From: a virus
Taxonomy: Duplodnaviria; Heunggongvirae; Uroviricota; Caudoviricetes; Autographiviridae
Strand: one strand, 5' to 3'
Length of the DNA: 4,538 nucleotides
Virus record (IMG/VR): IMGVR_UViG_2541047861_000003
Of this stretch, positions 1 through 4,538 are shown in pieces. The position numbers and the translations under genes are program-made. The notes beneath the pieces are model-generated. The model ran no database searches. It was not told the origin of the DNA and saw nothing but the letters and a program-made list of their open reading frames with translations. How positions within the stretch are numbered: position 1 is the stretch's first letter; the number at the start of each line of letters is the position of its first letter.

Positions 1-98
1 GAGTCTTGAGTCTTGAGTCTTGAGTCTTGAGTCTTGAGTCTTGAGTCTTGAGTCTTGAGTCTTGAGTCTTGAGTCTTGAGTCTTGAGTCTTGAGTCTT
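1..98 (-). repeat. Heptanucleotide VNTR: 14 perfect tandem copies of GAGTCTT (+ strand), i.e. AAGACTC on the coding (-) strand; array is cut by the window start so total copy number is unknown
   Basis: Direct reading: positions 1-98 are exactly 14 x GAGTCTT with no interruption. On the - strand all three frames are open through the array; on the + strand every frame hits TGA (GAG TCT TGA). Confidence 0.98.
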
Positions 99-103
99 AA
101 CAT
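1..103 (-). CDS. neuO: Polysialic acid O-acetyltransferase NeuO, 5' end only (start codon plus repeat-encoded N-terminus); partial, continues beyond window start
   Basis: ATG at 103..101 with AGGA at 114..111 (7-nt spacing). Frame reads ATG TTA then (AAGACTC)n, giving M-L-(RLKTQDS)n. This matches the recalled neuO 5' heptad-repeat architecture of prophage CUS-3. Gene body is not in the window, so identity rests on the repeat signature and genomic context (directly downstream of an endosialidase tailspike). Confidence 0.75.
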   Translation of the reverse strand, partial: MLRLKTQDSRLKTQDSRLKTQDSRLKTQDSRLKT

Positions 104-110
104 ATTAGTA

Positions 111-191
111 TCCTACGTTATTTTACCACTAGTTACTTTTCTTGTCATTAAAAAGCATTTAAATTTTTATATTTAATTTCGTTGACGTCAA
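111..191 (-). promoter_or_regulatory. neuO upstream region: Shine-Dalgarno AGGA (114..111) and candidate sigma70 elements (ATGACA 148..143, 17-bp spacer, TAAAAT 125..120; alternative TTGACG 191..186 with AAAAAT/TAAAAA about 16-17 bp downstream)
   Basis: Hexamer matching by eye on the reverse complement of an AT-rich spacer. The proximal candidate would place the transcript start inside the SD, so the distal candidate may be the real one. No experimental support. Confidence 0.3.
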
Positions 192-256
192 TGTTTTTTG
201 CCAATGTACTTACTTCTTTATGTGATCAGTTCATATTTTTGACGCCAACGAAACAT

Positions 257-3202
257 TTAGTGCTTCCCTTCTATTAAGTCTAACCTAGCTTTTATTCTTT
301 CTATTTCTCTGCGCTGCCATGCTGCCTCGATATAGAATAAGAGATCAGGTCTGACCCCCCATCTAGATCCTGCTGGCGTTATTTCAACGCGCTCAATGAT
401 GTCTTCCATTACCATCACTGGATTATCATCCTCATCAACAATGATGCTCCCGTCATTATCAGTCAGCGGCATTTCCCTTTGGCCAGTAATGACGTCATCA
501 TATACTGCGGGATAATCGTCATAGCAAAGAAAGGCATAGCGGCATGTTGTGCTTTCTTCTTCCATGAGTCCGTGAGAAATAAGAACATCACGAAGTTGCT
601 GCGCGATTACACCATGATGTATCCTCGCCCCTTCTTCCCCCTTTATAGCGACAGCGTTCAGCCATTTATAAGCGATATACCTGACGTCACCCCAGGCATC
701 CAGCAATGTTTCGTCAGGAGAGACCGGCTCTGTCTTTAATGTTCCGTCACTGGTAACCACAGGATTGGAGCCAAGATAAACTATCGAGAACCTGTTTCCC
801 GGACCACCAAGAGCATTTACATTATCAAGATAAGGTTTAACATCTCCGTTCTCAAAAAGATGTTCGAGTGCGTTATATACCGCGCGACGTGGAGTACTGC
901 TTCTGGAACCATGCAACGTTATCATTGCACCATCTGCTGAAGACGTTGTTTCACCGCCGCTAACGATTAATCTCTGAGCGGTAACATCATCAGACGGTAC
1001 TTTCTTCGCAATAATGGCGTAATTACCCTCAAGTTTGACTTCCGCGCGAACTTGTCCTGATGTACCTGCATGGACAGTCAGTGACTGGACGGCAACATCA
1101 TCTGTGAAATCAACGGGTACAGGAACCGTCCTCACGCCTGACGTCGACATAAAAGTAGGAAGCGTTCTGTTAGGAGTGGCTCCGTAGACAAAATCCCTTG
1201 AAACAAATTCTTCCTGTTTAATTTTCACCCTGAAACAATACAAATCAGCCGGGTGACCATCGTGAACATAAGGATATTTTCTGTTGTTATCCCCTATGCT
1301 CCATGGGTTTAGAAAGTCTTCCCCACCGAAAATGTAGTACAGCCAGTTGTCTTTGATACAAACTGAACCAACACCAACCGCAGAGTTAACTATTCCGCCC
1401 TGATAAATCTGATCAGTAACATTAACCCACTCTACATTATCCAGACTCCACTCATTGACGTTAACTCTGGTCATAAATGTTCTTGGATAGTTTCCTGCAT
1501 AACGGTTATCAGGTTCTCCTCCTTCCCACTCACCAAATGCGCGCTCACTGCCAAAAATAATCAGCTCATCGCCAACTTTGGCAAAAGGAAGGTTTGAGTG
1601 ATGAACATTATTTGGGAAGCGAAGAGAATTCCATGATGTACCTAAATCAGAGCTTCTGTGCAATGAACTACCGGGTTGAGTACTTAATGTCCCCCTGGTC
1701 GTCAGATACAGAATGCCATCATAATATTTTACACATGGCTCAGATGCATTCGCCTCATATTCTGCAGGTATGCGTCTGCGAACAAAGCTACCAGGAGAAC
1801 CGAAAGCATCAGAGAAATAGAGTATCCCAAGCTCGCGTGGACCAATATCACCATTATGGTAGCCAACAGCAAAACTGTTATCGCTAATCGTCGCAAAACT
1901 GTGAATCTCAGTAACAGGAGTGCTTCCGTCAACAAAAGAAGGAATAGTTCCAAGACTGGTTTTTCTCCATGGTGACGAGTGAAATGATGTACCAAAACTC
2001 CAGTATCTACCCTCGTTATTCTGATCCACATCCTGGGTATTTTGCGTCGTAACTGTAAAAGTATTTTTATCAATAACAGTAGTCACCGTCATATTCCCGG
2101 TAACACCTGTAACACCAGAGTTTGAGAAGTTGACAAAATCACCAGCAAATAATCCGTGATCAGTAATGCGAATATAAGCGACTTGCTGATTTGCTGCTTT
2201 CGTTATACCACCATAAACGCGAAGGCTGCGACTCATTGGGCGATCCCACAACTCTGCAACCTGCAGTTTATTTCCGCTCACGGTCCGCGTCTCAATTACA
2301 GCAAAAAGGCGATTTCTGACAACCCCCATACTCATGCAGTGATAGTTAACTGTGGGATAGTTTTCATGTAAATCTGTAAGCCATTCCGGCGTTGTCCAGG
2401 TCTTCCCGTCATCTCCTGAGCGAACCCATGCAACATGGAGGTTATTTACACCATGGCGGTCTCCAGCCATAAAAGGCGCATAGATGACATTGTCATATAC
2501 AAACGTTTTATCCTGCGTCCAGGCGTTGTACCACGGTGTATCTGTAATTTTAAATAACTCTCCCTGGATAAAATCTTCAGAAACATAAAAAAGAGGCTGA
2601 CCCGGTATTCTCTCAAATAAAAAACGAGCATTTTTAAATCGACTGACATCTGGAAGAGTTGATACTTTAAAAGTAAGCCCTCGCCCATCTATCTTTTCAC
2701 CACCTGTTGCAACAGAAAGTAATTCTGATAGAGCTGATGTATCATCATGAACACCATCACCAATAGCCCCCCAACCTCTTACATCATAACTGTCTCTCCA
2801 TCTTGCTATCTGAAGTTTTGGGTATTTATTCGCTCCATCTGGGTCTTCTAATTGCTGCCGTAGTTGATCAGGATCATACTTCAGCACATTCTGGAAATAG
2901 AACTGCTGTACGCCATACGCATCGTACACAGCCATAGAATGGCCTTGCACAGTTACGAACTTGGCAATCCGTCCGTTATATACAGGGTAACCAGCAGCGT
3001 TAATGATGATTGGTTGCGAAACAGGAACGTGAGAGCCGTCTTCGTTCTCTACATAAACCTGAATCCGGTTTTCAGGATTTACCGGGTCAGTGTCAATTTT
3101 ACCGATATAAATTTTGCCATTGGCTACGGCTTTAAAAGAACGCGCCATAGTGAAGAGTTGCGAAGGCATCGATACAATCACATTGGCTGTAATGTCTGTC
3201 AT
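257..3202 (-). CDS. Tailspike protein, endo-N-acetylneuraminidase (endosialidase) type, with P22 gp9-like N-terminal head-binding domain and C-terminal intramolecular chaperone domain
   Basis: 981-codon ORF, ATG 3202..3200 with GGAG 8 nt upstream, stop TAA 259..257. N-terminal ~113 aa (MTDITANV...VLKYDPDQ) closely resemble the recalled P22 tailspike N-terminus. Two bacterial-sialidase Asp-box motifs S-x-D-x-G-x-T/S-W are present: SGDDGKTW (aa 262-269, nt 2396..2419) and SSDLGTSW (aa 517-524, nt 1631..1654), both verified against the nucleotide sequence. C-terminal region resembles endosialidase chaperone domains. Confidence 0.92.
260..790 (-). other. Tailspike C-terminal intramolecular chaperone-like domain; predicted autoproteolytic Ser818 (nt 749..751) with Lys823 as partner
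   Basis: Motif [13 protein letters not shown] with Ser and Lys 5 residues apart, followed by ...[10 protein letters not shown]...[13 protein letters not shown]..., resembling the recalled serine-lysine dyad region of endosialidase/tail-fibre chaperone domains. Exact domain boundary is approximate. Confidence 0.55.
2864..3202 (-). other. Tailspike N-terminal head-binding (virion attachment) domain, P22 gp9-like; module junction at the YDPDQ motif (nt about 2864..2881)
   Basis: Similarity to the recalled P22 gp9 N-terminus ends right after ...NVLKYDPDQ; the sequence downstream is unrelated to the P22 receptor-binding domain. Confidence 0.8.
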
Positions 3203-3260
3203 TTAATTTGCTCCAGATGCAAAGAATCGCCGCAGCATGGCCACGGTGAATTTTGGGCAT

Positions 3261-3283
3261 AAAAAAACCCAGCCGAAGCTGGG
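3261..3283 (-). terminator. Rho-independent terminator downstream of ant (between ant and the tailspike gene)
   Basis: On the - strand: CCCAGC-UUCG-GCUGGG (6-bp GC-rich stem, UUCG tetraloop) followed immediately by seven U (+ strand 3261-3267 is AAAAAAA). Lies 19 bp after the ant stop codon. Confidence 0.75.
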
Positions 3284-3302
3284 TCGTTGCGTTGGTTATC
3301 TG

Positions 3303-4205
3303 TCAGTAATTATGTACTGAAGGAGGTAATTCTTTATTCTTAAGTCTCATCCATGCGGAAAGATTCGTTGGTCCGTCTGGCTCATTGATATCAACATCTC
3401 GTGTGTGATTGATTAAAACGTCTCTCGCCATATCGATAATACGGGAGAACTCATAACCGCAGTCATGACATCTGCCGGAATAGTTCGATTGAATTTGTTT
3501 TAGCGCCGGATACAGTTCGCGGAATAATGCCTGTGAGCGGTTGGCATAATCCCATAGCCATACAAGGCTGTTTGCTTCTTTTGCAGAAAGCTCGTTGGTT
3601 TTCTTCTCTTGTTTGCCGATGAACTCACCTTCAAGCACTACCCTGTGGATGTACTCTACTGCTTGTGGTATCTGAGATGCATCAAGCTCTTCAATACTTT
3701 CCACATTGAAACGCTGATGAATCATTGCATAAGCTTCTGGGTACATTAGATGCTTTTTGCTGACTAGCATATTTACAGCATCACGAAGCGGAGTCCTGTC
3801 ATCAACAGATGTTTTCTTCCGTGCATTTGCTGCCTCTCCCTTTGTCCAGTAGTCATGCAGCACAGTAAAGCATTCTTCCTGGTACTGAATCAGTTTATCG
3901 CGGATGTCAGCACGAACTTTCTCAGGGTTGATGCTGAACAGCCATCCATTTAACTTCTTCAAAGGAAGGCAGAGTAGCTTACGAAGCTTACCATCAGCGG
4001 CAACCATGTTCATATGAACACAGTTGAATTTGCTAATCTGCTTCATGAGTTTTGTTTGCTGCGTTGACCAGCTCATTCCGAGGTTTTCAACGATTGGCTT
4101 CATCGCAACATATGCAACTCCGGCAGCCATGGCGGTGATAATTTGCTGACCGTTGAATGGCACGTAAGAGGTGTTCACTGCTTCTAAAATTGCTATACTA
4201 TTCAT
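3303..4205 (-). CDS. ant: Antirepressor Ant (P22 immI-type), 300 aa
   Basis: ORF in the supplied track runs 3303..4271 from a GTG. Preferred start is the internal ATG at 4205..4203 ([21 protein letters not shown]...), with GGAG at 4219..4216, giving 300 aa, which matches my recollection of P22 Ant length and N-terminus. Stop TGA at 3305..3303. Confidence 0.8.
4191..4199 (+). promoter_or_regulatory. Candidate extended -10 promoter (TGcTATACT) on + strand inside the first codons of ant, oriented antisense to ant (Psar-like)
   Basis: TG-n-TATACT at 4191-4199; no good -35, consistent with an extended -10 promoter. Predicted start about 4205-4208, opposite the ant start codon and SD. Confidence 0.35.
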
Positions 4206-4287
4206 GTTGGTTTTTCTCCACGGATTTACCGACAACCGAAGCCCTGACTGTTCCAGCAGTTGGGGCTTCACTGTTTTGATTTCTTTG
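4206..4287 (+). ncRNA. sar: Predicted sar-like small antisense RNA complementary to the ant translation initiation region
   Basis: Candidate promoter at 4191-4199 and a strong terminator-like hairpin 4238-4269 followed by a U-rich tract, delimiting a transcript of roughly 70-80 nt antisense to the ant SD. Matches the recalled arrangement of P22 sar RNA. Prediction only. Confidence 0.4.
4238..4287 (+). terminator. Intrinsic terminator-like hairpin for the antisense (sar-like) transcript
   Basis: + strand RNA GAAGCCCUGACUG-UUCCAG-CAGUUGGGGCUUC forms a 13-bp stem including two G.U wobble pairs, followed by ACUGUUUUGAUUUCUUUG. On the - strand the two wobble pairs become C.A mismatches, so the structure is stronger on the + strand. 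Confidence 0.45.
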
Positions 4288-4443
4288 CCGCATCAAGCAT
4301 CACTTCTGAAAACGTGCGCTTGCCACTGAATACTCTTTCTCTTCTCAATTTTTCGTTCGTGCCAAATGATTCGCCATGAACAAAATTTGGTCTTAAAATG
4401 GTAATCGCAATCTCTTTGACTACTGCATCCAAGCGAATCACAC
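4268..4443 (-). pseudogene. Possible 3' remnant of a gene upstream of ant, truncated by the IS insertion (58 codons open to the IS boundary, no usable start codon)
   Basis: - strand frame reads ...[56 protein letters not shown], with stop TGA 4270..4268 overlapping a GTG (GTGA) in the ant frame. Does not match recalled P22 Arc. An open stretch of this length could also arise by chance (about 6-7 percent expectation). Confidence 0.25.
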
Positions 4444-4538
4444 TGAACCGCCCCGGGAATCCTGGAGACTAAACTTCCTGAGAAAGAGGTAAACAGGATG
4501 ACTAAAAATACTCGTTTTTCCCCCGAAGTCCGTCAACG
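4444..4538 (+). mobile_element. IS3-family insertion sequence (IS629/IS1203/IS3411-like), left terminal region; partial, continues beyond window end
   Basis: Sequence from 4444 begins TGAACCGCCCCGGGAATCCTGGAGAC..., a typical IS3-family terminal inverted repeat starting with TG, followed 54 bp later by an orfA start whose product begins MTKNTRFSPEVRQ, which I recall as the IS629-group OrfA N-terminus. Confidence 0.7.
4498..4538 (+). CDS. IS3-family transposase OrfA, first 13 codons only (partial)
   Basis: ATG at 4498 with GAGG 8 nt upstream; translation MTKNTRFSPEVRQ runs off the window end. Confidence 0.7.
   Translation, partial: MTKNTRFSPEVRQ

Follow-up and report, generated by a model that had tools for sequence, protein, structure and literature searches.

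A CUS-3-type prophage tailspike with a P22-type head-binding domain and a predicted K1F-type endosialidase cassette

Main finding

The gene at positions 257..3202 of the window (the whole 4,538-nt stretch of DNA analysed here) is the tailspike gene of a CUS-3-type prophage (P22-like, Lederbergvirus) of K1-capsulated Escherichia coli; it has already been described and is not new. Taken as a whole, the locus is almost certainly best explained as a CUS-3-type P22-like tailspike in which a P22 head-binding adaptor is followed by an endo-α-2,8-sialidase cassette, and none of the results spoke against this. The domain composition, the position of the junction, the conservation of the catalytic and cleavage residues and the identity to known prophages were established here; the endosialidase activity was shown by others on the CUS-3 protein SiaK1, and would extend by analogy to the window protein, which is equal to SiaK1 from residue 146 to the end.

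Gene layout and identity of the locus

The window holds the following genes and signals:

1..103, minus strand: 5′ part of neuO (polysialic acid O-acetyltransferase), truncated at the limit of the window
257..3202, minus strand: tailspike gene, a siaK1 homologue (ORF, Pfam, PDB, RefSeq WP_000129907.1)
3266..3285, minus strand: intrinsic-terminator-like hairpin (GACCCAGC-TTCG-GCTGGGTT plus T7), separating ant from the tailspike gene
3303..4205, minus strand: antirepressor gene ant, 300 aa per RefSeq (Pfam P22_AR_N and P22_AR_C)

Regarding the tailspike ORF, it starts with ATG, preceded by GGAG 10 bases 5′, and encodes 981 aa with zero internal stops up to the stop codon at 257–259; its product is an exact match to RefSeq WP_000129907.1. 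The calculated mass of the precursor is 109.5 kDa, and the CUS-3 enzyme is listed at 109 kDa (PMC5380687).

Window nucleotides 1–3635 were 98.5% identical to phage CUS-3, and the nearest phage records belonged to Lederbergvirus. In the CUS-3 GenBank record, siaK1 is annotated as ‘endosialidase tailspike protein’, and its activity carries the evidence code IDA (PMID 16689790). SiaK1 has the same length as the window protein (981 aa), the same architecture and the same neighbours, with neuO and its AAGACTC repeats downstream and ant upstream. Its endosialidase activity was reportedly described by Stummeyer et al. 2006 (Mol Microbiol 60:1123), and a further reference for CUS-3 SiaK1 (CP000711, ABQ88383) is King et al. 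2007 (J Bacteriol 189:6447).

The match to chromosomal prophages extended further, since nt 1–4443 were 100% identical to prophages of K1 ExPEC/APEC strains (MS7163, S88 and APEC O1). In MS7163, tRNA-Arg is followed by intS, the acyltransferase gene (neuO), the tailspike gene, ant, a 57-aa ORF and arc; genomes identical over 1–4443 have tRNA-Arg, intS, neuO and tailspike in this order, the attachment site itself lying outside the window. The tRNA-Arg gene next to intS at which prophages of the CUS-3 group integrate is called argW in PMC9659370. The first-pass annotation, made from the letters alone, had proposed a P22-like particle directed to the K1 capsule by an endosialidase acquired through domain swapping; it is borne out by these identities, together with the E = 0 match of the cassette to the endosialidase of phage K1F (endoNF) described below.

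As for the flanking genes, ant lies immediately upstream of the tailspike gene and is an immI gene in P22-like phages; P22, epsilon34 and CUS-3 share the order from ant to the tailspike gene, and the hairpin between them has the same position as the terminator annotated in epsilon34. Downstream, the tailspike gene is adjoined by neuO, a cargo gene of CUS-3, in the layout found in CUS-3 and MS7163. The neuO reading frame opens with ATG at 103–101, followed by TT and by at least 14 AAGACTC repeats (98–1) that run to the window edge, and this start fits the published phase-variable poly-psi tract (PMC3046976). A consensus promoter scan of the window returned 12 sites, against 9.7 expected from shuffled sequence, and was thus not enriched. 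One of the sites, 5′ of neuO at 148–120, has 10/12 matches and a TG extension; coming from a non-enriched scan, it is a lead.

These neighbours bear on the possibility that the DNA comes from a lytic K1 phage of the K1F, K1E or K1-5 type, and that its resemblance to P22 gp9 is superficial. Lytic K1 phages do carry homologous endosialidases; against this, the tailspike gene is flanked by ant, the end of arc and neuO, the window is identical to chromosomal prophages at tRNA-Arg, its nearest records are Lederbergvirus, and the N-terminus of the protein is a full-length P22-type domain (next section). The prophage identity and the P22-like neighbours rule out a lytic origin, to which we give next to no credence.

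Unlike CUS-3, the window has an IS3-family element at arc. It is inserted after nt 4443 (window 4444–4538), in the immunity region and upstream of the tailspike gene, and leaves only the last codon and the stop of arc on the window side; ant is thereby cut off from the arc side, the expected place of its P22-type promoter. This insertion is relevant to another reading, in which the gene would be an intact but stranded remnant, the prophage copy being defective, its spike never reaching a virion, and the locus being kept only for its useful neighbour neuO. Besides the separation of ant from the arc side, such a fate agrees with the IS insertions found inside the tailspike gene in phiv205-1, FY26, NCTC11151 and DSM 30083, and with the proneness of CUS-3-like prophages to decay (PMC9659370); given this frequent decay and the upstream IS3 insertion, the copy analysed here may not yield phage. 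However, all 981 codons of the ORF are intact, with the same sequence in many strains, and the element sits in the immunity region without hitting a structural gene, the remainder of the prophage lying beyond the window. A stranded remnant is a conceivable but rather doubtful explanation, and one that concerns the fate of this prophage copy, not the nature of the protein, which we continue to read as a CUS-3-type tailspike.

Head-binding domain and junction

The tailspike was divided into these segments:

2864..3202, minus strand: P22-type head-binding (virion attachment) domain, aa 1–113 (Pfam PF09008, PDB, blastn)
2567..2863, minus strand: linker (aa 114–145) and endosialidase N-terminal extension (aa 146–212; Pfam End_N_terminal PF12218, E 2.9e-37; K1F alignment)
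1217..2566, minus strand: catalytic six-bladed β-propeller, aa 213–662 (Pfam End_beta_propel PF12217, positions 1–367 of the 367 of the model, E 1.2e-233; PDB 1v0e/3gvl, E = 0)
1985..2233, minus strand: β-barrel (polysialic-acid-binding) inserted in the propeller, aa 324–406 (PF12195 End_beta_barrel, E 1.2e-46)
752..1216, minus strand: stalk or tail-spike domain, aa 663–817 (PF12219 End_tail_spike, E 6.7e-78)
260..751, minus strand: C-terminal intramolecular chaperone domain, aa 818–981, 18.7 kDa (Pfam Peptidase_S74 PF13884, aa 818–878, E 2.8e-10; PDB 3gw6)

The first ~113 residues had been likened to P22 gp9, and the comparison proved sound: Pfam Head_binding (PF09008) covers aa 1–113 with 113/113 model positions (E 3.8e-64), and the N-termini of P22 gp9 and Sf6 gp14 in the PDB match aa 1–118/126 with E between 1e-45 and 3e-64; the PDB entries 1lkt, 2xc1 and 7sg7 were among the matches, and HK620-type N-termini were matched as well. 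The identity of the domain is 88% to epsilon34 and 74% to P22. Residues 1–113 would thus be the P22 gp9-type module that joins the spike to the virion, the docking of the trimer being inferred from domain homology. The tailspikes P22 gp9, epsilon34 gp19, Sf6 gp14 and HK620 share with the window protein this domain, the YDPDQ motif and the location of the gene directly after ant and a terminator; their receptor parts, instead, are right-handed β-helix O-antigen endoglycosidases unrelated to endosialidase, and P22 gp9 is not known to have a cleaved C-terminal chaperone.

YDPDQ occupies aa 109–113 (nt 2864–2878) and is the end of the head-binding domain. By blastn, homology to epsilon34 covers 2865–4270 (94%) and that to P22 covers 2864–3268 (71%), while at the protein level the local alignment with K1F endoNF opens at aa 114, which corresponds to K1F 214. 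As DNA homology stops at 2864/2865 and the K1F alignment begins at aa 114, the switch is placed at nt 2863/2864, with Q113 the last residue before it and L114 the first one after it. Mapping the breakpoint against P22 gp9 and the K1 endosialidase hence places it directly after YDPDQ, as anticipated in the initial reading; only the range assigned there to the motif, 2864–2881, was too wide, because nt 2879–2881 encode K108.

The same point recurs in other tailspikes. Of the 5,426 complete E. coli genomes searched, 1,166 had DNA matching the tailspike gene, and only 181 had 80% or more of the gene; when 33 partial matches were sampled at even spacing, 25 of them ended within nt 2862–2871, which indicates that many unrelated tailspikes have the head-binding segment in common as far as this position. 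An example is the IMG/VR contig L073, with the same ant gene and a head-binding segment 95% identical to that of the window, followed after YDPDQLR by a different, 853-residue receptor-binding protein. Past the junction, the linker L-R-x-Q-x-x-(D/N)-P-x-G-A is common to the window protein, K1F and L059, and the linker of epsilon34 is similar (LQVKLADPDGA). The head-binding and endosialidase modules are joined at a conserved junction that is used by many other tailspikes.

Endosialidase part

Residues 145–817 match the crystallised endoNF (PDB 1v0e and 3gvl) with E = 0, and residues 698–979 match its C-terminal chaperone domain (PDB 3gw6) with E 2e-93; the endoNF crystal chains stop at the residue aligned to T817. 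K1F endoNF (PDB 1V0E, 3GVL and 3GW6; Kayfunavirus, T7-like) corresponds to the window protein from the linker to the C-terminus, with 64% identity over 851 residues, and the six-bladed propeller fold would follow from the 64–70% identity to solved structures. K1F differs in having a T7 tail-fibre-type N-terminus (aa 1–213) in place of the P22 head-binding domain, and 7 residues (FVDGSTP) are inserted at aa 423–429 of the window protein. In addition, endoNF Q853, a sugar-binding residue of the stalk, is aligned to Met760 in the stalk of the window protein.

Alignment to full-length K1F endoNF also located the functional residues. His350, Glu581, Arg596 and Arg647, reported as the catalytic residues of endoNF (Stummeyer et al. 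2005; Schulz et al. 2010), correspond to H250, E488, R503 and R554 in the window protein and are all conserved; the R647A substitution is seen in the PDB chain 3gvj. Likewise, endoNF S911 and K916, the Ser/Lys pair of the autocleavage, correspond to the conserved S818 and K823. Autocleavage is accordingly predicted before S818, at Thr817/Ser818.

The two sialidase Asp-boxes announced by the first-pass annotation were located at aa 262–269 (SGDDGKTW, nt 2396–2419) and aa 517–524 (SSDLGTSW, nt 1631–1654); they are the only matches to S-x-D-x-G-x-x-(W/F/Y) in the whole protein, and both fall within the catalytic propeller. The endosialidase-like C-terminus that it had also recognised is now resolved into End_tail_spike at aa 663–817 and Peptidase_S74 at aa 818–878, along with the match to 3gw6.

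The Asp-boxes could in principle be coincidental motifs in another β-propeller or β-helix depolymerase, so that the central domain would not be a sialidase. The one datum leaning this way is the generic sialidase model BNR_2, which stayed under threshold in the Pfam scan of the tailspike (17.4 vs 31.4 bits); this low score was attributed to the divergence of the GH58 family and was not counted against a sialidase, and no support for a different fold was found. Coincidence is excluded by the four endosialidase Pfam models matched end to end, by the match to crystallised endoNF with its catalytic residues conserved, and by the identity from aa 146 onwards to the assayed CUS-3 enzyme, and we judge it vanishingly improbable. 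Residues 114–981 therefore read as a complete GH58-type endosialidase cassette of the K1F endoNF type. The published view of CUS-3 is the same, since CUS-3, HK620, Sf6 and P22 are described as having a common N-terminal domain, and CUS-3's catalytic domain as the endosialidase also present in K1F (PMC5380687).

Divergence across the junction and traffic of the cassette

The comparison with CUS-3 divides sharply in two. There are 0 nucleotide differences over nt 1–2841 and 54 over the 794 nt from 2842 to 3635, with the step at the YDPDQ junction (Fisher p = 5e-37); SiaK1 is 100% identical at the protein level over aa 146–981, while over the head-binding domain and the initial third of ant the window has another allele. 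Homology to CUS-3 stops at 3635, and the epsilon34-like sequence of the window runs on to 4270. The head-binding domain of the window allele differs from that of the RS218 CUS-3 at 5 of 113 residues.

A similar contrast is found in ~35 IMG/VR contigs with the full chimera: their 339-nt head-binding segment is 5–16% off the window, and their 2607-nt endosialidase segment only 0.1–1.0%. The same cassette (~99.3–99.5% identical) is found from residue 175 on, behind another N-terminus, in Uetakevirus-type temperate phages (ZX5 and ~25 contigs). In the epsilon15-like vB_EcoP_ZX5, the cassette DNA is 99.5% identical over window 289–2681 (aa 175–971); the N-terminus of the ZX5-type tail protein has ~190 aa and no Pfam match, and its junction differs, being at aa 174/175, inside the N-terminal extension. 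Finally, a cassette version 91% identical lies behind Tail_spike_N (PF18668), joined as ...GDAS/LRSQVSDPDGA, where the slash marks the joint, with the shared linker LR(S/Q)Q-x-x-DP-x-GA. A one-genome-per-species contig scan with the full protein gave 37 pattern matches, none confirmed by tblastn, and it is uninformative on the occurrence outside E. coli.

On balance, we lean towards the view that the endosialidase cassette is young and has spread recently, having been put several times onto virion-attachment modules that are older and have diverged, in prophages of K1 E. coli, and the YDPDQ junction seems to have been used repeatedly among related prophages. The same divergence pattern would arise if the head-binding segment underwent gene conversion from other P22-like prophages resident in the host. 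The pattern is consistent with existing knowledge on mosaic tailspikes and leaves the verdict on the gene unchanged.

Proposed mechanism

In the established CUS-3-type scheme, the trimeric spike would be docked on a P22-like tail through residues 1–113. The catalytic β-propeller, the sugar-binding β-barrel and the stalk would then bind and cut the K1 capsule's α-2,8 polysialic acid, and by cutting it the spike would give the phage access to the cell surface. The 164 residues at the C-terminus would act as an intramolecular chaperone for the folding of the trimer and then remove themselves before Ser818, to leave a mature chain of ~91 kDa. After lysogeny, the phase-variable neuO may O-acetylate the same polymer, with a lower susceptibility to K1 phages as the outcome; O-acetylation by neuO lowers killing by K1 phages (PMC13001214, PMC9659370).

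Implications

The CUS-3 tailspike is a textbook example of module exchange in the review literature (PMC5380687), and CUS-3 is the standard example of phages that change their capsule specificity through exchange of the enzymatic tailspike part on a conserved virion adaptor; the adjacent neuO affects how ST95 ExPEC O-acetylate the K1 capsule, resist phages and cause disease. What is added here is quantitative, namely the step in divergence seen at the junction and the finding that the cassette is nearly identical on different attachment modules, both of which are useful for dating and tracing the exchange and for choosing fusion points in tailspike engineering. If the cassette is indeed a recently spread unit, a single capsule-depolymerase cassette would still be moving, through defined junctions, between three or more phage lineages, temperate or lytic.

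Head-Binding Segment, ant and Endosialidase Cassette

Regarding the relation to phage CUS-3 (strain RS218), the window has no differences from it in nt 1-2841 vs 54 in nt 2842-3635; CUS-3 homology ends at 3635, and epsilon34-like sequence runs on to 4270. The distribution of differences and the end of homology show that the head-binding segment and ant, the antirepressor gene, represent an allele distinct from that of CUS-3, and that ant is a mosaic in its own right. A closely similar head-binding segment also occurs with another receptor-binding region: record L073 (3001-5562) has ant as in the window and a segment 95% identical to that of the window, and past YDPDQLR it continues into a differing receptor-binding region of 853 aa that ends with a Peptidase_S74 chaperone domain.

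As for the endosialidase cassette, the window type is borne by temperate phages of Uetakevirus type (epsilon15-like), namely phage vB_EcoP_ZX5 (L003, 2472-5591) and about 25 IMG/VR contigs (L035-L065); in these phages, it has ∼99.3-99.5% DNA identity to the window from aa 175 on, it is preceded by an unrelated N-terminus of ∼190 aa with no Pfam match, and the junction lies within the endosialidase N-terminal extension. In L059 (2578-5577) and L063, the endosialidase has 999 aa and matches the cassette of the window at 91% identity in DNA; its N-terminus is a Tail_spike_N domain (PF18668, TSP1/Gp66-type), joined at GDAS|LRSQVSDPDGA, and its C-terminal chaperone domain is nearer the K1F type. 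Compared with endoNF, the K1F endosialidase, the window protein has a 7-residue insertion, FVDGSTP, in the propeller region (aa 423-429, window 1916-1936), and Met760 at the position of the stalk residue Q853.

neuO and Its Upstream Region

Two features lie at the neuO end of the window:
1-103, minus strand, neuO 5' end with the AAGACTC repeat tract, cut by the window edge
120-148, minus strand, top-scoring promoter-like site (ATGACA, 17 nt, TAAAAT, TG extension; 10/12 matches)

At related loci, the repeat is present in 18 copies in phiv205-1, 19 in CUS-3, and 21 in both MS7163 and E10. The promoter-like site is 17 nt 5' of the neuO ATG and is a consensus match only; the promoter scan of the window overall gave no enrichment vs shuffles.

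immI Region and Insertion Sequences

The other end of the window holds two further features:
4268-4441, minus strand, 57-aa ORF between arc and ant (RefSeq WP_000620145.1, hypothetical)
4444-4538, plus strand, IS3-family insertion sequence (left end only), with orfA beginning MTKNTRFSPEVRQ at about nt 4498

The 57-aa ORF has no Pfam match; since P22 and epsilon34 homology to the window stops at nt 4270, it is an additional module in the immI region of the CUS-3-type prophage group. The IS3-family element is inserted after nt 4443, so that, on the window side, arc is reduced to its last codon and stop. This insertion, absent from most genomes otherwise 100% identical to the window, may uncouple ant from its promoter.

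IS elements, either IS3-family or the IS21-like ISEc12, also interrupt the tailspike gene in phiv205-1 (L002, 5033-7354) and in the genomes FY26, NCTC11151, SF-088 and DSM 30083; these split genes are consistent with decay of CUS-3-like prophages in which neuO is retained.
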